DNA from: a virus
Direction: 5' to 3' (one strand)
Length of the DNA stretch: 64,000 nt
IMG/VR virus record: IMGVR_UViG_3300045541_000260
Location: 5,929 to 69,928 of that record
Shown here in pieces: positions 3,607 through 49,172 of the stretch. Both the position numbers and the translations under genes were made by a program. The notes beneath the pieces are model-generated. The model was not told where the DNA came from, did not search any database, and saw only the letters and a program-made list of their open reading frames with translations. Position 1 is the stretch's first letter; the number at the start of each line of letters is the position of its first letter.

Positions 3607-3926
3607 AATTTGAAAAGCGTTATGACGAACAAGGCCGTGTAGCTGTATTAATCAGCCCGGGCTTTGGTGCAGGGTGGAGCACTTGGGCCGCATTGGACGA
3701 AGCCGAGGCCCTGCTGTTTGACAGTCGTATTGTTGACGCAGTATTGGCCGATCAATCATCTGCTGAGATTACTAGTCTAGTCGAAGACTTGGGTTACGAT
3801 TCTTATCTTGGTGGCGTATCCGGTCTTGAAGTTCATTGGCTTGAGCCAGGAACTCGATTTTACATAAACGAATACGATGGTAGCGAAAGTCTTCGTACTT
3901 TTGATGATCTTGTTTGGGTGGCTTAA
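3603..3926 (+). CDS. hypothetical phage protein
   Basis: SPGFGAGWSTW and EYDGSE motifs; GTGA overlap with previous gene. Confidence 0.7.
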   Translation: MKFEKRYDEQGRVAVLISPGFGAGWSTWAALDEAEALLFDSRIVDAVLADQSSAEITSLVEDLGYDSYLGGVSGLEVHWLEPGTRFYINEYDGSESLRTFDDLVWVA

Positions 3927-4078
3927 ATCATGTTGACTAAAGTTACAAAATATATGGTAGGCTTCATGGTCATCATGACTGCTTTCCTAACTTATATTAA
4001 TTGGGGAGAAGCCGCAGGCATGGCATGGTTATGTGCCACTAGTGGTTGGCTGGCAGCATTCTTTCGCGAGGATTGATC

Positions 4079-5813: not shown

Positions 5814-6220
5814 TTAAGATATTGCGTCGAGTTCAGGCTGGCTGGAGACTATACAAGTCTCGCCGATTTCTGGCACGGCATAACTGCGAAACCTGGCGTC
5901 AGTATCGCTATCACTATGATCCTGATTACAACTTGCGAGCCACTCGTGTTCAGGATAAGTTTCATGGATATCCCTATATCTATAGGTTCGCCGACCATAC
6001 TCATGAAGTATATGATTGGAATGTTCACTTGGATGGCATCTATAGAATCAGTCAATGGTGTGACAGAAATTTACAAGACAAGTATAGATTTGAAGCGTTG
6101 CGAGTATCTCAGGATTACGCTGGTGAATGGAGTGAAAATGGCATAGGTCACAGTGATTACATTTTCGCTGGATTCAAGACCAAGAAAGATTACATGTTGT
6201 TTGTGTTGAAATGGTCATGA
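5810..6220 (+). CDS. LKWS-family small protein
   Basis: QWCDRN; ends DYMLFVLKWS. Confidence 0.7.
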   Translation: MIKILRRVQAGWRLYKSRRFLARHNCETWRQYRYHYDPDYNLRATRVQDKFHGYPYIYRFADHTHEVYDWNVHLDGIYRISQWCDRNLQDKYRFEALRVSQDYAGEWSENGIGHSDYIFAGFKTKKDYMLFVLKWS

Positions 6221-24261: not shown

Positions 24262-24885
24262 ATGAACGATTCGGTACTAGTCATTGACGATTTTTTTGAC
24301 AAGGAAAAACAAAAATCTCTACAAAGGATTATGGAAATAGATCCGGATATCATCTGGGTTTATGTTCTTAAAACTGTAGCATATAATCATTCTACAACAA
24401 TTAATCAACTGAGAGTTCTAGATAAAAATATCTATCATCCAGGTTTTGGTGTGTTGGTACATCAAGTCTTGGAAAGAGAAAAAATTTTAAGTGCTGAGTA
24501 TTATAATGATTTTTTTGCTGATTTACCAAGCCGCATAGAATCTAAAACCGACATTTCAGTAAACAAACTTCTGAGAGTGAGATTTAATATGTCATTTCCC
24601 ATGAGACAATCTGTTGTCGGTTATGATTTACCTCATTCAGATTCTACTGAAAAAAATGTTATGACTTTCTTGTATTATGTAAACGATTCGGATGGTCCTA
24701 CTACTCTGTTTGATCAACACGATTCCGTTGACGAAAGTTGTCTTTTCGACGAACTAACCATACACAAAAAAATCGATCCAAAACAAGGAAGAGCAATTAT
24801 TTTTGATTCTAATCGTTTACATGCTGGGGCTTGGCCCAGTCAAAATAAACGATTTGTTATAAACGCAACATTTTTAGCAGATTAA
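24262..24885 (+). CDS. 2OG-Fe(II) oxygenase
   Basis: PHSD, YYVNDSDG.T, LHAG, R.VIN; start moved past the tRNA. Confidence 0.8.
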   Translation: MNDSVLVIDDFFDKEKQKSLQRIMEIDPDIIWVYVLKTVAYNHSTTINQLRVLDKNIYHPGFGVLVHQVLEREKILSAEYYNDFFADLPSRIESKTDISVNKLLRVRFNMSFPMRQSVVGYDLPHSDSTEKNVMTFLYYVNDSDGPTTLFDQHDSVDESCLFDELTIHKKIDPKQGRAIIFDSNRLHAGAWPSQNKRFVINATFLAD

Positions 24886-26867: not shown

Positions 26868-27365
26868 ATGAGATTTGTAAAAAAAATTCCAAACTTTTTT
26901 AGCATTGATGAATGCCAGACAGCAATCTCATGTCATGATGATTCATATTATCAAGATCATGGTAATCTTATCGGCGGTTCTCTATCAAGTTTTAACTTTT
27001 TTAAAGATAAGGATCGCAATGAGTTTCATGAACTGTTAGATGAGAAATTAAATTTTAGCAATAGGATACTTGAACTTATCAAGTTCCCGGGAGCTATTTC
27101 GCATGTTTGGCTTAACATACAGCCTAAAAATTCTGTTTTAACCCCGCATATCCATTCACACAACAATTGTATAATGTCGGGTAGTTTGTATTTAAAAGTT
27201 GATAGCAGTAGTAGTGCAATTAAATTTTCTCATGTCGAGAAATACATTGTTAAACCAGAATTAGGAATGCTGTTGGTATTTCCAAGTTGGTTAGTACATG
27301 GGGGTTATGGAGACAATTTATCAGATGAAAGAATAGTATTAAGTTTTAATGTTGTAAAAAATTGA
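26868..27365 (+). CDS. 2OG-Fe(II) oxygenase (TIGR02466-like)
   Basis: W.N, H.H, SGSLYL, FPSWLVH, RIVLSFN. Confidence 0.8.
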   Translation: MRFVKKIPNFFSIDECQTAISCHDDSYYQDHGNLIGGSLSSFNFFKDKDRNEFHELLDEKLNFSNRILELIKFPGAISHVWLNIQPKNSVLTPHIHSHNNCIMSGSLYLKVDSSSSAIKFSHVEKYIVKPELGMLLVFPSWLVHGGYGDNLSDERIVLSFNVVKN

Positions 27366-27449
27366 TACCATATTGAAGCACATTATCAAAGTGGGTTCGA
27401 TTCCCCGCCATTGATCCGGTTGCTGGTGCTAGTGTGTTTCAATATGGTA
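27366..27449 (+). ncRNA. long-stem ncRNA with T-arm-like hairpin
   Basis: TACCATATTGAAGCACATTA/TAGTGTGTTTCAATATGGTA; internal GTGGGTTCGATTCCCCGC. Confidence 0.7.
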
Positions 27450-27494
27450 AGAGAGTAATTAACTTTTACTGTAGTCGGAAGTCATGACTCCGAT

Positions 27495-27630
27495 GACCCG
27501 TGGTAGTTTAATGGCAAAATGAGAGAGACACAGGTTCGAGCCCTGTCTGGATCCCTAACTAAGGAACCGGTAGCATAGTTGGACAATGCGCGGACAGATG
27601 GCAGTTTCGAAACCTGCCCCACAATGGGTC
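27495..27630 (+). ncRNA. tandem anticodon-less tRNA-elbow mimic
   Basis: two D-arm + T-arm units enclosed by GACCCG/TGGGTC. Confidence 0.6.
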
Positions 27631-27732
27631 GCTATATTGAAGCACATTAGATCGACTAAGGAAGGTCAGGGAGAAGTGAAATTCTCGTAGGGAGTAGGAG
27701 TCGAGTCCTACAATAGTGTGTTTCAATATGGT
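27631..27732 (+). ncRNA. long-stem ncRNA, GAAGCACATT/AGTGTGTTTC family
   Basis: GCTATATTGAAGCACATTA/TAGTGTGTTTCAATATGGT; internal GTAGGA/TCCTAC and GAGAA/TTCTC hairpins. Confidence 0.7.
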
Positions 27733-27735
27733 TAA

Positions 27736-27955
27736 ACCATAAGAATGACAATTTGATGTCAGCAAGAGAAAGTCACTGTTGTAAGTAGCTGGCCAGCCAA
27801 AGCGACAGTAAAGCAGTGAGGGGCGCAATACCCTAGCAAAAATAGAAGCACTGGACAAGTATCTCAAGTGACTTACCGACTCCCGTCCGGACTAGTGCAA
27901 TCGGGTGAATGGTGCCAATAAGGTGGTGGCACATTCAAGTTGTCATCCTTATGGT
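27736..27955 (+). ncRNA. 220-nt structured ncRNA closed by 21-bp helix
   Basis: ACCATAAGAATGACAATTTGA/TCAAGTTGTCATCCTTATGGT; internal AAGTCAC/GTGACTT. Confidence 0.65.
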
Positions 27956-27963
27956 AAAGTTTT

Positions 27964-28048
27964 GGAGAACGAGAAGCATTGGTGACTTCAGGAGACTGTA
28001 AATCTTCCGCCTCCGGCATACGGGGTTCGAATCCCTGGTTCTCCACCA
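27964..28048 (+). tRNA. tRNA-Tyr(GUA)
   Basis: cloverleaf, variable arm, CCA. Confidence 0.92.
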
Positions 28049-28054
28049 AGTTTA

Positions 28055-28129
28055 GGTCTCAAGGTGTTCATGGACGCACACATGCCTGTCACGCATGAGG
28101 AGGGGGATCGTTACCCCCTGGGACCGCCA
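28055..28129 (+). tRNA. tRNA-Asp(GUC), atypical T-loop
   Basis: stem CATGC/GCATG, loop CTGTCAC, T-loop ATCGTTA, GCCA. Confidence 0.88.
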
Positions 28130-28133
28130 ATTT

Positions 28134-28169
28134 GGAAGCGTAACTCAGTTGGTTAGAGTATCGGACTTT
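28134..28169 (+). pseudogene. 5' half of a tRNA (probably Lys-UUU) truncated at the anticodon
   Basis: GGAAGCG-TA-ACTC AGTTGGTTA GAGT-A-TCGGA-CTTT then AT-rich sequence; no complementary 3' half seen. Confidence 0.75.
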
Positions 28170-28201
28170 ATTTGATAAATAAGTATAAAGGAGTTACAAT
28201 T

Positions 28202-28831
28202 ATGCTTACTTGTCAATTTTGTAATAAAGAGTGTAAAAATAAAAATAGTCATATAAATCACGAGAGAACTTGCCCTTCTAATATAAACAGAGTTTATAAA
28301 AATGGAATGTTAGGTAAAAAAGGATCTAACCATTGGCTCAAAGCAAGGAGTGAAGGAACAGAATATGTTTTATCAGAAGAAACTAGACAAAAAATGTCTG
28401 TCGCAAGTTCTAGTAGGACACATTCTGATAAAACAAAAAAAATATTGTCAGAGATAAGAAAGAAATTTTTAGAGGAAAATCCAGATAAGATTCCGTATCT
28501 ATTAAATCATTCTTCAAAAATTTCTTATCCTGAGCAATATTTTTTAGAGTGTTTTTCGAACATAACCAAAAATAAAGAATTTCAATATCCAATACACAGA
28601 TTTTTAGTTGACTTTGCTAATCCTAAAGAAAAAGTATATCTTGAAATTGACGGCGAACAACATTATGTTGATAAAAGAATTGTTGCTCACGATACAATAC
28701 GCAGTAAAAAATTAACTGAATTGGGCTGGACGGGAATTAGAATTCGTTGGGCTCATTTTCAAAAATTAACAGATGATGAAAAAAAGCAAAAGATAAATGA
28801 AATACGGTCCATGATGAAATGGTTATCATAG
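28202..28831 (+). mobile_element. free-standing homing-type endonuclease (Zn finger + NUMOD3-like + Vsr/DUF559-like nuclease)
   Basis: CQFC..H...C; LSEETRQKMS, HSDKTKKILS; VDF..LEIDGEQHY..D..R...L..LGW..IRI.W; SD AAGGAG. Confidence 0.8.
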
Positions 28832-28879
28832 TTGACTTTTAATCAATCTTTCCCGGTTCGAGTCCGGGTGGACCGACCA
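28805..28879 (+). tRNA. tRNA-Lys(UUU) overlapping the endonuclease 3' end
   Basis: CGGTCCA/TGGACCG acceptor, GTTGA-CTTTTAA-TCAAT, CCCGG-TTCGAGT-CCGGG, ACCA. Confidence 0.9.
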
Positions 28880-28905
28880 ATTATAAACTAAGTGTAAATT
28901 GTAAC

Positions 28906-29268
28906 ATGAAATTCACTATCGACGAACAATATATCTGCGATGTTCAAGTTAGGCAAGAATACGATTTCATCAAAGATCGTAACAATCCCACGCCCGAAGA
29001 ACTTATCAAGGTCCTGCAGGGCCACGATAAAGCCGTTACTACATATAACAAAGACCACGATGAATTCACTAAGTTGCGTAACCAACTTGAAGCACTAGGT
29101 TACATTAAGTGCGAGCGCAGCTGGTGGAATGGTGATGTAGTGTTGAAACCATTTGTGCTTAACGATATTAAATTTCGAAAGAATGATAGATTTCTTTGTG
29201 CCGCGGCAATGAAGACTGCCTTAACGGTTGCAAAACAAACAGGAAGAAAGTATAATCCTAGATACTAA
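28906..29268 (+). CDS. hypothetical protein
   Basis: DH.EF..LR..L...GYI..ERSWWNGD.V. Confidence 0.65.
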   Translation: MKFTIDEQYICDVQVRQEYDFIKDRNNPTPEELIKVLQGHDKAVTTYNKDHDEFTKLRNQLEALGYIKCERSWWNGDVVLKPFVLNDIKFRKNDRFLCAAAMKTALTVAKQTGRKYNPRY

Positions 29269-29283
29269 CTTAAAGGAACTATA

Positions 29284-29466
29284 ATGTTGAAACCCGGACC
29301 CAATTTTAAGATGACTAAGGCCAACAAGTATACTGTGGCAAAAATTCTCGACCCGCATCGTCGTGGAGAAATCAAGCGCGGCCTTATCGATGCTCAATTG
29401 GCCAGCGAAATTAGAGTCAAGTCTAACAAAGAAGATCGCAAGTCAGGCCCACCAGCTGCTCAGTAA
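29284..29466 (+). CDS. small basic hypothetical protein
   Basis: SD AAGGA. Confidence 0.55.
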   Translation: MLKPGPNFKMTKANKYTVAKILDPHRRGEIKRGLIDAQLASEIRVKSNKEDRKSGPPAAQ

Positions 29467-33280: not shown

Positions 33281-33844
33281 ATGAATAAAAACTTTCGAAT
33301 AATCGATGATGCACTGCCCAATCCTTTCGAAGTAAAAGAATTTTTAAAGTCACTGACACATTTTACAACAGAAACTTATAAAATTGATGGCTTGGCCTAT
33401 GGCGACAATTCTCAAAGACCAGATGGTTATTGGAGAGGATTCAGATCGGTTAATGTTTATAACAAAGATAGAGTGAATACAGAATTAACGTTGAAGTATC
33501 TCTTAAAGAAAGTTTTCCATATGGACTGTTCTTTTAACAGCGCAGAAGCATACTCACATTTTACCACGGACAGAATGCATAAAGAAATTCCTCCGGCTAG
33601 TCGTTGGCATCCAGATAATGTTGAGTGTGCAGGAGTTCTTTACTTAAATGAAAACCCACCGAAACATTCAGGAACATTTATTAATGTTAATGGCGAAATA
33701 ATTGAAGTTGAAAATAAATTTAACCGATTGGTAGTTTACCATGGCGGATTGCACCACGCTCCTGGAGTATTATTTGGAGAAGATGCCAGCAATGCCAGAC
33801 ATACATATTCTATATTCATTAAAGATATAAAGTTTAACAAATAA
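33281..33844 (+). CDS. 2OG-Fe(II) oxygenase-like protein
   Basis: HPD, AGVLYL, GT, FNRLVVY...HH. Confidence 0.7.
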   Translation: MNKNFRIIDDALPNPFEVKEFLKSLTHFTTETYKIDGLAYGDNSQRPDGYWRGFRSVNVYNKDRVNTELTLKYLLKKVFHMDCSFNSAEAYSHFTTDRMHKEIPPASRWHPDNVECAGVLYLNENPPKHSGTFINVNGEIIEVENKFNRLVVYHGGLHHAPGVLFGEDASNARHTYSIFIKDIKFNK

Positions 33845-34036: not shown

Positions 34037-34666
34037 ATGAACACAGTTAATATTGGACCTTGCTCAATTGATATCCACGAACGTGCCGGTATAGTCATGA
34101 GTGGAGGCGCTGACAGTAGCGTATTACTTTTCATCATGATGAAATATTCCCAAAGCCCTGTTAATGTTTATACATTAGCTAGTAAGGAAAAATTCTTTTC
34201 GTCGGCACAGATTAGTGCTAACGTAATTAAAAAATGTATGGAATTAACAGGCAAGAGCATTAATCAACATAATGTAATTTATGCTGATAAACAAAATAAC
34301 GAATTAGTGTTCAAGCATCCATGGAGAGACTTAAAGTCTAGAGATATATCAATTGTTTATACTGGTTTGACTAAATTGCCGCCCATTGAAGTATATTCGA
34401 AATTTAAGAACCCTACAGAAGACAGTGTGTTTGAGGAGCGAAATCCCAGCGTAACTTATAATGAATATTCGGGAAATAAAAAAATCTATATGCCCTTTTA
34501 TAATCTGGATAAAAAACAAATACATGAAATTTATCGAAATTTTGACCTAGAACACAGCCTATTCCCACTGACAAGAAGTTGCGAAAGTTTAGTACAAAAT
34601 ACAGGTCATTGCGGTACATGTTGGTGGTGTGAAGAGCGCCAATGGGCTTTTGGTAGATTAGAGTAA
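34037..34666 (+). CDS. QueC-like PP-loop ATPase
   Basis: MSGGADSS; TRSC...HCGTCWWCEER. Confidence 0.7.
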   Translation: MNTVNIGPCSIDIHERAGIVMSGGADSSVLLFIMMKYSQSPVNVYTLASKEKFFSSAQISANVIKKCMELTGKSINQHNVIYADKQNNELVFKHPWRDLKSRDISIVYTGLTKLPPIEVYSKFKNPTEDSVFEERNPSVTYNEYSGNKKIYMPFYNLDKKQIHEIYRNFDLEHSLFPLTRSCESLVQNTGHCGTCWWCEERQWAFGRLE

Positions 34667-34767: not shown

Positions 34768-35547
34768 ATGGAAATTAAAATTATGACCACTCTATCAGAC
34801 GCAACTTATCTACAACCGCACAATAAAAATTTATGGGAAATATTTTCCATGGATGACTATTTTACGGACAATAATAAAGACAATTTTCTTGTATTAGATT
34901 TTGGCTGTAATCAATGTAATTTTCTTACTTCTGCTTACAGAAACACCAAACAGCCCAGACGTTTTGGCCCAAAGAATTACATAGGTTTAGATTCAAATCT
35001 TAATTCAGTTAACACTGCCAAGGAAAAGTATCCTTTAACAGCTAATAAGATACTTCACTATGACAAATATCATAGAAGTTATAATCCCACTGGCATTCCT
35101 GGGCTTTTAGCCAGCAATTACATAAACACTAAAGTTGATCTGGTCGTCGCTTATAGCGTTTTTACTCATTCAAGTATTAATGAAACTCGTGAGATTCTTG
35201 ACGATTTAAAAACTCTACTAAAGCCCGGTGGCTCAATTGTGTTTAGTTTATGGACATCCGAGTCTTTGGAGGGATTCTATAATTACAGTTCGGCAAATCG
35301 TAATATCGAAAAAACACCAGAACGATATCAAGAACTAGTTGCTAAACCTTTCAACCAGGTTATGTATTGGATAGACCATAATTATTCTTTAGTTGATTCC
35401 AATGAAGTAGAAACTGGCCCGGTGAATTCTTTTAGCACATTCTACAAGGATGTTAATGCGATATTAAATATATTTCCCGACTTTGAATACTTGGGCAAAC
35501 CCAGTCTGCCCAAGCAATATCAGCAGTTGTTCAAGCTGTCAGCTTGA
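34768..35547 (+). CDS. class I SAM-dependent methyltransferase
   Basis: VLDFGC, YIGLD, YSVFTH, LLKPGG. Confidence 0.8.
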   Translation: MEIKIMTTLSDATYLQPHNKNLWEIFSMDDYFTDNNKDNFLVLDFGCNQCNFLTSAYRNTKQPRRFGPKNYIGLDSNLNSVNTAKEKYPLTANKILHYDKYHRSYNPTGIPGLLASNYINTKVDLVVAYSVFTHSSINETREILDDLKTLLKPGGSIVFSLWTSESLEGFYNYSSANRNIEKTPERYQELVAKPFNQVMYWIDHNYSLVDSNEVETGPVNSFSTFYKDVNAILNIFPDFEYLGKPSLPKQYQQLFKLSA

Positions 35548-45820: not shown

Positions 45821-46360
45821 ATGGCAATAGTACATCATGTCAAAAAAATTTTATTCATTCATATACCAAAAAATGCAGGTGCAAGCATTAGCAAGTGGTT
45901 ACTGGAATATGGAGCCGTTAAAGTAGATAGCATAAGACACAGCTCGTTACAAGTTAGTGATTTTAAAAACAGTTATTATAGTTTTTGTGTTATAAGAAAT
46001 CCATGGGACAGAATAGTTAGTTTGTATCATTATGCCATGAAAGTTAATAATGAAACTATTGATTTTAATAAATGGCTTAAGAAAAATTATCATTTTAGTC
46101 GACACTGGTATTCAGTTTCGACTTGCCAAGTCGAATGGATACAACACGAACCTAATTTGATTATTCGTTACGAAAATTTAGGCAACGAGTTTGAAGTAAT
46201 CCGTAGTAAGTTTAATTCAACTATGCCTTTGCCAACAATTAATAAAACTGTGCATCAACATTATTCAACTTACTATGACGATTGGAGTAAAAATTTTGTC
46301 GGCGAGCTTTATCTTAAAGACATCGAGCGATTTAATTATCAGTTCACTGCAAATAAATAA
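45821..46360 (+). CDS. sulfotransferase family 2 protein
   Basis: FIHIPKNAGASI, RNPWDRIVS.Y. Confidence 0.85.
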   Translation: MAIVHHVKKILFIHIPKNAGASISKWLLEYGAVKVDSIRHSSLQVSDFKNSYYSFCVIRNPWDRIVSLYHYAMKVNNETIDFNKWLKKNYHFSRHWYSVSTCQVEWIQHEPNLIIRYENLGNEFEVIRSKFNSTMPLPTINKTVHQHYSTYYDDWSKNFVGELYLKDIERFNYQFTANK

Positions 46361-47189: not shown

Positions 47190-47885
47190 ATGGCAATAGA
47201 ACTCGTCGATTTGATTTACAGAAAGAAAAATGCTTTGACAAAAGATGAAGCATATTTTCTTATCGAAGAATATCAAAGACTGGACAATACGCATCAATTG
47301 GAACATTGTCCGCATGCTATAACAGGCATAGATACTTTTTCGTCTTTTAAGCGTGTAGAATTAACGCAAGGAACAGAAGCGTTCGATTTAGTATTCAAGG
47401 CCAATGAAAATCTTATAAATGAATATTTGGATTACCTAGACGGCTTTGAGATGTTTCATACTCTTATAAGAACGACCATGACTTATAGTCATATGTATAG
47501 ACTGCTCAAGTATGAAAAAGGAGCTAAAATACATCCTCATACTGATCATAGCCCTTTTATCTACGGCAGTGCAACATTTAATTTAAACGACAATTATACT
47601 GGCGGAGATTTTGTCTTTTGGAGAGGGAAACACAGAGTAAAGCTCGAAGCCTGCGAAGCAATGATTTGGCCTGCAGATCATTTCTGGATACATGAAGTTG
47701 AAGAAATTACTTCGGGAGTGAGATATTCAACCAATAGCTTTTTACAAAGTGTTGCTGATCCGCTAAGAGAAGCAGCAATGAATTTTGTTGAAAAGAAAAT
47801 AGAACAATCAAAATTAATACCAATTCAACGAGAATACGAAAAAACACATAGATATAAGATTAAAAAACCGCAAACAAATAACTAA
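47190..47885 (+). CDS. prolyl-hydroxylase-like 2OG-Fe(II) oxygenase
   Basis: LLKY, HTD, LNDNYTGG, HEV..ITSG.RYS. Confidence 0.82.
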   Translation: MAIELVDLIYRKKNALTKDEAYFLIEEYQRLDNTHQLEHCPHAITGIDTFSSFKRVELTQGTEAFDLVFKANENLINEYLDYLDGFEMFHTLIRTTMTYSHMYRLLKYEKGAKIHPHTDHSPFIYGSATFNLNDNYTGGDFVFWRGKHRVKLEACEAMIWPADHFWIHEVEEITSGVRYSTNSFLQSVADPLREAAMNFVEKKIEQSKLIPIQREYEKTHRYKIKKPQTNN

Positions 47886-48476: not shown

Positions 48477-48542
48477 CTCAGTTGGTAGAGCGTCGCCCTT
48501 ACAAGGCGAATGTCGGCGGTTCGAACCCGTCAACTTCCACCA
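48467..48542 (+). tRNA. tRNA-Val(UAC)
   Basis: cloverleaf, CCA. Confidence 0.95.
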
Positions 48543-48551
48543 AATTTTACA

Positions 48552-49172
48552 ATGAAGAGAAACAAAATACTTGCAACGGAGTTTTATGAATTTCAATGCC
48601 CTGAAGATTTGTTTAATTTAGTTTTAGCCGAGATTCCAACTTTACAGTTTAACAAAGATCCATCGAATTACAGCACTGGGTATTATTACAACGAAGAACT
48701 TTTTTCTTGGTTCAACGAATGTTTAGATGTAGTTGCCAAAGAGTTGTTAGCAGAAAATCTAAAGTTTGAAATTTCAAACTGCTGGCTTAATAAAGCATAT
48801 AAGTCACAAAAAACTCCCCTGCATCTTCATCCACAGTCCATACTAAGTTCAGTTATGTATTTTGCAGACAGTGAAAGTGGTAGAACTATTTTTAAATCTC
48901 TGAATCCATGGTACAAAGTTCAAAATGAACATTTTTTGCACTTGACAAACGACAGAAGAAAGTTATACAATACTGATGAAATAAAACCCCAAGCAGGAAA
49001 ATTAGTACTTTTTCCCAGCACAGTGTTTCATGAAGTTAGTGTTTATACAGGAAATGATCCAAGATACACATTATCGTTTAATGCGTTTGTAACCGGTGAA
49101 TTCCATGATCCGAATCATAATGCTGTAACAGATTATTTGAATATTAAAACTTTATTTCCTTATAATAAATAG
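48552..49172 (+). CDS. 2OG-Fe(II) oxygenase (TIGR02466-like)
   Basis: W.N, H.HP.S.LS, FPS...H.V, RYTLSFN. Confidence 0.8.
   Translation: MKRNKILATEFYEFQCPEDLFNLVLAEIPTLQFNKDPSNYSTGYYYNEELFSWFNECLDVVAKELLAENLKFEISNCWLNKAYKSQKTPLHLHPQSILSSVMYFADSESGRTIFKSLNPWYKVQNEHFLHLTNDRRKLYNTDEIKPQAGKLVLFPSTVFHEVSVYTGNDPRYTLSFNAFVTGEFHDPNHNAVTDYLNIKTLFPYNK

Follow-up and report, generated by a model that had tools for sequence, protein, structure and literature searches.

The stretch of viral DNA analysed here, called the window throughout, comprises 64,000 nucleotides (nt; positions 5,929 to 69,928 of the 69,928-base IMG/VR record IMGVR_UViG_3300045541_000260, CheckV completeness 21%) and carries an array of 27 tRNA genes. 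Within this array a broken tRNA-Lys(UUU) gene is followed by the gene for a putative homing endonuclease and by a second, complete tRNA-Lys(UUU) gene, all on the + strand, as are the flanking features described with them. The left neighbour, a tRNA-Asp(GUC) gene (28055..28129; ARAGORN, Rfam 36.9 bits), is part of the recipient backbone and lies outside the element. Four bases further on begins the stub (28134..28169), which corresponds to positions 1-35, the 5' half, of the tRNA-Lys(UUU) gene resident there. Its 36 nt run from the acceptor strand through the D arm and the 5' side of the anticodon stem to CTTT (positions 32-35), the first four bases of the loop, after which the gene breaks inside the anticodon. 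The cassette leader (28170..28201) contains the word GATAAATA (28174-28181) and the ribosome-binding site AAGGAG (28188-28193), the distance from the end of the stub to the nuclease ATG being 32 nt. The nuclease open reading frame (ORF; 28202..28831, ATG at 28202, stop codon ending at 28831) encodes 209 aa and overlaps the complete replacement tRNA-Lys(UUU) (28805..28879, CCA encoded; ARAGORN, Rfam 62.2 bits) by 27 nt, its last 8 codons and stop occupying the first 27 nt of the tRNA. A spacer (28880..28905), which arrived with the cassette, forms the right end of a 736-nt segment absent from a relative, and is followed by the 5' part (28906..29165) of a downstream ORF of 120 aa. The original prediction for this locus had described a stub ending in CTTT, a nuclease ORF and a complete tRNA-Lys(UUU) of unrelated sequence, and all three were found as described by sequence inspection, ARAGORN and Rfam; the 27-nt overlap was likewise correct, the nine codons plus stop assigned to it being in fact eight plus stop.

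The stub agrees at 35/36 positions with the first 36 nt of the tRNA-Lys(UUU) annotated in Alishewanella phage Slicko01, and a tRNA-Lys profile matches it at model positions 4-35 (nhmmer, E 2.8e-4). It is unrelated to the 5' part of the complete tRNA-Lys (local alignment score 8 of 36), which is itself the sole tRNA-Lys (28805-28879) in the 69,928-base record. A 3' half matching the stub is absent from the window, where a degenerate T-arm plus acceptor pattern matched only the end of a tRNA-Ser (0.64 matches expected by chance), and from the whole record, where an exact 7-mer gave one unrelated match. The AT-rich character ascribed to the endonuclease gene was borne out: the promoter-plus-ORF segment has a GC content of 28.5%, against a window mean of 40%, and lies below all sampled 635-nt windows of the 64 kb.

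The leader word GATAAATA agrees at 7/8 letters with TATAAATA, which we take to be the late-promoter word of T4 type and which stands at the equivalent place in most homologous loci. Most relatives also have an inverted repeat around the ribosome-binding site. Control by a hairpin, proposed from these relatives, was unsupported for the window itself: a leader hairpin over the start codon was predicted when 28134-28215 was folded, and it was not better than shuffles (z -1.25).

Based on Pfam, the nuclease contains a DUF559 domain (E 2.3e-9, above the cut-off). The zinc finger and NUMOD3-like motif that had been proposed for it were both recovered as matches, to zf-C2H2_jaz (E 0.0047) and NUMOD3 (E 0.33), and both fell below the Pfam cut-offs. 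There was no GIY-YIG match in Pfam at E up to 1. The AlphaFold model of the 209-aa protein (predicted local distance difference test, pLDDT, 80.4) contains a small beta-beta-alpha unit at residues 1-23, and the top Foldseek match of this model was 3r3p_A, the catalytic domain of I-Bth0305I (E 7.8e-4, probability 1.00; target template modelling (TM) score 0.75 over 98 columns). The Foldseek list also includes 3hrl (DUF559) and Vsr (1cw0, 1vsr). A sequence search of PDB by phmmer retrieved only 3hrl (E 0.016) and not 3r3p, and PHROGs gave a weak "homing endonuclease" match (E 1.9e-4). Residues D137, E148, D150, H154 and D157 are invariant across 18 nuclease homologues. The layout is that of a module resembling a zinc finger at the N-terminus, then a linker, then a Vsr-like domain at the C-terminus (DUF559, putatively EDxHD-type), for which the structural model predicts the Vsr-like fold seen in the homing endonuclease I-Bth0305I. 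Scanning viral contigs with the nuclease yielded 46 loci (designated here by L numbers), which reduced to 35 non-redundant loci including the window, 29 of them full-length.

Public sequencing runs were searched with the region 27900-29300, no RNA data set being listed among those that contain it, and four of the runs were aligned to it. One contig of run X4 (record 11; 765 nt, depth 5.1) has 0 differences to the window over 27900-27958 and 28041-28169, after which 54 letters, known by length only, replace 736 nt (28170-28905) and the match to the window resumes at 28906. Related genomes therefore differ in presence and absence of the segment at this site, with a joint from 28169 to 28906. A contig of run X3 (record 9) has the same downstream differences, and its 25 letters before 28906 end as the 3' end of a tRNA plus 13 nt; they consist of the last T-stem base, the acceptor 3' strand, A73, CCA and the 13-nt spacer. 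This acceptor 3' strand pairs with the GGAAGCG of the stub, including a G1-U72 pair. The 54 letters of X4 record 11, in turn, fit 41 nt (tRNA positions 36-76, to CCA) plus a 13-nt spacer. Because 54 equals 41 plus 13, and because the tRNA 3' end in X3 pairs with GGAAGCG, a single tRNA-Lys can be placed at this site in the relative, and X4 record 11 fits an empty site, with an uninterrupted tRNA-Lys of the stub type lying 13 nt before the downstream ORF. An intact GGAAGCG-type tRNA-Lys in related phages had been named as the check for this locus, and the check came out positive through X4 record 11 and the pairing acceptor strand in X3. A megablast of 27900-29300 against 50,697 phage records returned tRNA-sized matches only. 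Loci L049-L057, which were found via the downstream 120-aa ORF and considered as empty sites, were rejected since the order of their tRNA genes is not kept.

As the record is a metagenome assembly, and as the only runs spanning the stretch may be its own source, the arrangement might be a chimeric join of two phage populations within repeated tRNA sequence. Such an assembly artefact is considered highly improbable, since the stub and the complete tRNA have no common repeat that could mislead an assembler, since L005/L006 and L007, which come from other samples, have the same nuclease-tRNA unit together with a stub, and since a single contig spans the stretch at an even depth of 47. In run X1 one contig covers the whole stretch without differences.

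The right flank of the cassette differs from its left flank in its relation to the relative. Identity is 188/188 upstream, approximately 88% for some 200-260 nt downstream, and 135/136 over 29165-29300 (X3 record 10), contrasts that are significant by Fisher tests (p 3e-8 and 2e-5). Over 28906-29194 (289 nt) the window and X4 record 11 differ at 34 letters and by 6 gaps (approximately 88% identity). The divergent part of the downstream ORF (28906..29165), the right end of which lies between 29091 and 29165, is possibly a co-conversion tract of the right flank. It need not be a conversion tract, because the downstream ORF varies in run X7 as well.

A separate difference was observed 130 nt upstream of the cassette. 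In X3 record 5 and X4 record 11, 83 other letters replace window positions 27959-28040 (82 nt, the body of a tRNA-Tyr), with identical flanks; judged from the aligned contigs, this is a second allele swap.

The position of the break recurs among the homologous loci. By model position, the stub ends at 35 in the window and in L003/4 and at 34 in L007; stubs ending in CTT or CTTT were recognised by eye in L005/6, L017, L037, L038 and L039-41. The same site is occupied in two further ways. L010 (3598-3942, identical in L036) has a tRNA-Lys(UUU) with a group I intron between CTTT and TAA (RF00028, 57.9 bits, E 2.9e-12, above the gathering score); the matching 3' exon (3905-3942) lies 272 nt on, and a homologous nuclease ORF reads into the 5' exon. 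In L037 (2927-3635) the anticodon loop of a tRNA-Lys(UUU) gene is interrupted by an apparently frameshifted nuclease gene; the two tRNA halves can still be paired with each other, a ribozyme is absent, and the nuclease ORF ends at the TAA of the loop itself. Four interrupted alleles (window, L007, L010 and L037) have CGGA before the loop in common, and intact neighbouring tRNA-Lys genes mostly have TGA there, with the exceptions of L027 and the upstream gene in L025. The difference between CGGA and TGA is a hint that bears on immunity of the donor tRNA; immunity could not rest on the CGGA stem alone, because the intact genes of L027 and L025 (upstream) carry CGGA.

A break at the classic intron position, and a true group I intron at that very place in L010, might suggest that the window also holds a spliced intron with a nuclease gene, the 3' exon of which lies elsewhere in the genome, only 21% of which is in hand. 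This explanation is nevertheless most improbable. Rfam gave no Intron_gpI or ribozyme match in the window, only 32 nt separate the stub from the ATG, and the ORF continues directly into the tRNA that follows it. The search of the rest of the record for the 3' half of the stub, which the original prediction had set as a check against an intron, found none in 69.9 kb, and this, together with the lack of a ribozyme, speaks against an intron; the relative indicates that the 3' half used to lie at this spot and was then replaced.

Passive decay was considered as well, in which two tandem tRNA-Lys genes with a nuclease between them would have existed and the first copy would have lost its 3' half by an unrelated deletion. 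Complete tRNA-Lys genes are indeed present on both sides of the nuclease in L008, L009 and L012, and tRNA fragments of every sort are plentiful in phage tRNA arrays. At the site in question the relative has one intact tRNA-Lys and no tandem pair, the downstream ORF following 13 nt on; moreover the stub is identical to the allele of the relative up to U35, and separate lineages show the same break point, which is also the intron site. Decay is accordingly judged quite unlikely.

The nuclease family is closely linked to tRNA-Lys. The tally covers loci retrieved with the window protein as query. In 25 of the 29 non-redundant full-length homologues, the closest tRNA called by ARAGORN on one side or both is a tRNA-Lys, compared with approximately 6.7 expected from a background of 47 tRNA-Lys among the 384 tRNAs in these loci (P approximately 1e-12). 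In three of the four misses (L022, L017 and L037) a tRNA-Lys(UUU) is uncalled or split: L022 has an uncalled tRNA-Lys(UUU) at the end of the ORF (Rfam 44.6 bits), L017 has an odd tRNA-Lys(UUU)-like gene at the corresponding place, and L037 is the insertion described above. In L029 tRNA-Lys is second in line from the nuclease. The six most distant loci have no tRNA-Lys neighbour.

Homologues with approximately 30% identity were also identified in cultured phages (L058 701-1420, L059 701-1427 and L060 704-1367), where they are mostly annotated as hypothetical. The homologue ORFs of Klebsiella phage LilPanda and Escherichia phage Mizar stop within tRNA-Arg(UCU), and that of Rhizobium phage RHph_TM2_3B abuts tRNA-Met. 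Both the LilPanda and the Mizar locus have an upstream GTGCTCTATCC word and a hairpin over the ribosome-binding site, the late-promoter-like word being TATAAATA in LilPanda and AATAAATA in Mizar. Because these homologues end in tRNA-Arg(UCU) or abut tRNA-Met, the habit of reading into a tRNA would be older than the tie to lysine. Their presence at tRNA-Arg and tRNA-Met could also mean that the enzyme is a general SegB-like cutter of tRNA genes that recognises a shared motif, e.g. in the T arm, and that the link to tRNA-Lys reflects common descent of the cassette. The neighbouring tRNA-Lys genes are very diverse and lie upstream or downstream depending on the locus, which argues against one inherited cassette, and the breaks are in the anticodon and not in the T arm, with the L010 intron at the same site. 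A general cutter is for these reasons regarded as unlikely.

A clade with good support (100/97) unites the window, L003 and L005; in all three the sequence right after CTTT is homologous, and the stubs differ. A common junction with differing stubs is what would be expected if the junction were inherited and the stub renewed from each recipient. The stub-nuclease-tRNA layout is found outside this clade too, in L014, L007 and L017. L013 mirrors the window, with a complete tRNA-Lys, the nuclease and then a 3' stub. Pieces of tRNA genes, either 3' halves or T-arm fragments, were located beside nucleases in L013 (3657-3692), L021 (2865-2899), L019 (2870-2901) and L008/L009 (upstream of 2912).

The replacement tRNA-Lys was compared with its orthologue in L005/L006, from which it differs by nine substitutions and one D-loop base. 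Six of the nine form three double compensatory pairs (3:70, 5:68 and 52:62), two keep pairing via G-U and one is in the T loop, no stem being opened. Because the substitutions are compensatory or G-U and break no stem, the replacement tRNA is, by its pattern of change, kept functional. A tRNA-Lys with the same unusual D arm occurs without any nuclease in the related contig L055, and the replacement would therefore be an ordinary phage tRNA type picked up by the cassette. The overlap of ORF and tRNA, which had been viewed as a device that prevents deletion of the cassette, found no support in that role: the ORFs of relatives merely run into whichever tRNA follows, until the first stop, and T4 segB and tRNA-Arg have the same layout. 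The overlap is consequently not special to the window locus.

As an additional observation, tRNA-Lys(UUU) genes of 84-88 nt with a long variable arm, unusual for lysine tRNAs, lie beside several nucleases: L007 3626-3709, L025/L026 3774-3861, L027 2813-2898, L038 3757-3843 and L016 2791-2875.

Taken together, the locus is probably best explained by a free-standing Vsr-like (EDxHD/DUF559) homing endonuclease gene, equipped with a late-type promoter of its own, which targets the DNA of the tRNA-Lys anticodon loop and travels with a replacement tRNA-Lys(UUU). In its core, an element located at the anticodon of the canonical tRNA-Lys gene that brings a substitute tRNA-Lys, this agrees with the original prediction. 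From the sequences we infer a cleavage site, a repair route and an immunity of the donor as follows. In a mixed infection the enzyme would cut both strands at about U34-U36 of the canonical tRNA-Lys(UUU) gene of another phage, and the break would be repaired from the nuclease-carrying genome, with promoter, nuclease and linked tRNA copied in. On the left side the 5' half of the recipient would pair with the short stub of the donor ahead of the nuclease; on the right side the 3' half and the spacer would be chewed back, with a crossover in the common downstream ORF. The recipient 5' half would be left as a dead stub, the donor tRNA-Lys would take over its function, and a donor-like patch would remain downstream. 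The donor tRNA-Lys is presumed to stay uncut because its D arm and anticodon stem differ.

Several observations weigh against this explanation. The empty-site allele is a single contig of depth 5.1 from one run, in which the 54 letters are known by length only. The 18 letters in X3 that continue a stub-like 5' half belong to a contig of another context, in which 5 differences occur. The runs that span the whole stretch, X1 and X2, may be the source of the record and would then not be independent of it, and an exact 30-nt stub scan of viral_contigs gave 0 matches. The downstream ORF is variable in run X7 too, where contigs have 15 and 32 differences. As to the break position, five of the eight stubs at U34/U35 were judged by eye alone, and the break lies in the anticodon stem in L014 and in the D loop in L019. 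The CGGA anticodon stem of the broken type is also present in some intact neighbours (L027, L025 upstream). Finally, the distant homologues (approximately 30% identity) are at other isotypes, i.e. tRNA-Arg(UCU) in T4-like coliphages and Klebsiella phages and tRNA-Met in Rhizobium phages.

The closest known system is SegB of phage T4, described as a free-standing GIY-YIG homing endonuclease in a tRNA gene cluster which recognises a T-loop motif that many tRNA genes have at their 3' end and shows no isotype preference (PMC2330249; PMC13096335). The window nuclease resembles it as a free-standing nuclease in a phage tRNA array with the end of its ORF touching the next tRNA; it would also resemble it in targeting tRNA genes and in spreading with neighbouring tRNA genes that replace those of the recipient, as SegB is reported to do. 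For the contact between T4 segB and tRNA-Arg it has been proposed that tRNA maturation cuts the mRNA at the stop codon and thus keeps the enzyme scarce (PMC2330249), and the logic of control by a hairpin and a late promoter has been discussed for T4 nucleases (PMC2330249; PMC13096335). Unlike SegB, with its GIY-YIG domain and T-loop motif, the window nuclease is predicted to be Vsr-like, and its family is tied to tRNA-Lys with breaks in the anticodon.

The EDxHD (Vsr-like) homing endonucleases, including I-Bth0305I and phage Hef, have been described in introns, in inteins and as free-standing genes, and I-Bth0305I is reported to cut right beside the insertion site of its intron (PMC3239194). 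The predicted catalytic fold (3r3p) is a likeness to I-Bth0305I, and a putative DNA-binding region N-terminal to the nuclease domain may be another. The latter is encoded inside a recA group I intron and has two NUMOD2/HTH (helix-turn-helix) motifs, whereas the window protein is free-standing, has a zinc-finger-like N-terminus and is tied to tRNA. A target in the anticodon region of a tRNA is described for the intron-encoded I-Ssp6803I. That enzyme is bacterial and encoded within a self-splicing intron, its tRNA being whole after splicing, whereas the window has no ribozyme and a second tRNA gene serves.

In collaborative homing, a free-standing endonuclease stands beside a target gene that bears an intron. 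L010 and L036 resemble this arrangement, the nuclease lying immediately before a tRNA-Lys(UUU) in which a group I intron interrupts the presumed target site, whereas the window is without an intron. According to a 2014 review, all phage group I introns then known were in protein genes (PMC3984707), which makes the L010 intron of interest in its own right. No phage tRNA gene with a group I intron came up in a literature search, Table 1 of Williams 2020 (bioRxiv 10.1101/2020.01.27.920355), with a possible Lys intron class, lying outside that search. Full-text literature searches likewise returned no Vsr-like/DUF559 family tied to phage tRNA-Lys and no anticodon stubs left with a replacement tRNA by such cassettes. 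Free-standing homing endonucleases that move tRNA genes are already known from SegB; the new part would be an anticodon-directed, Vsr-like relative tied to tRNA-Lys. The case points to an isotype-specific, anticodon-directed nuclease of a family other than that of SegB, for which a natural pair of filled and empty alleles is in hand, and the locus provides both an enzyme and a defined target with which cleavage could be assayed. Such cassettes would also account for a part of the half-length tRNA genes that are scattered through phage genomes and complicate the annotation of tRNAs.

A broader proposal, which is offered tentatively and seems possible although doubtful, is that a single family has the anticodon loop of tRNA-Lys(UUU) as its homing site, and that the intron (L010), the naked insertion (L037) and the replacement (window, L005, L007) are three solutions to entering an essential gene without destroying it and would be living intermediates in the origin of mobile introns, with in addition an undescribed route of "replace instead of splice" and a possible shuttling of tRNA-Lys variants that escape host anticodon nucleases. 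The three states of one site, intron, naked insertion and replacement, bear on how mobile introns are formed. Bacterial anticodon nucleases commonly attack tRNA-Lys(UUU), and for this reason an element that swaps it between phages may matter for phage-host arms races. Each homing event would exchange the tRNA-Lys allele, and the incoming one would often have an odd D arm or a long variable arm, so that escape variants could be shuttled by the element.

The remainder of the array was also inspected. None of the ORFs scanned, 8 of those in the window that end at a tRNA and 2 further ORFs of the array, is a nuclease. Upstream of the cassette, approximately 600 nt (27366-27963) with 45.5% GC are without a + strand ORF of at least 60 aa, and a weak partial tRNA-like Rfam match lies within them at 27503-27547 (22.7 bits, E 0.048); this region may be tRNA debris or an unknown RNA. 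Four paralogues of a 2OG-Fe(II) oxygenase (24262-24885, 26868-27365, 47190-47885 and 48510-49172) and one DUF6445 ORF (33281-33844) interleave the tRNA array. Further array ORFs (34037-34666, 34768-35547 and 45821-46360) include a QueC-like ORF, a methyltransferase and a sulfotransferase. Several ORFs of this oxygenase, DUF6445, QueC-like, methyltransferase and sulfotransferase set stop a few bases from the next tRNA.

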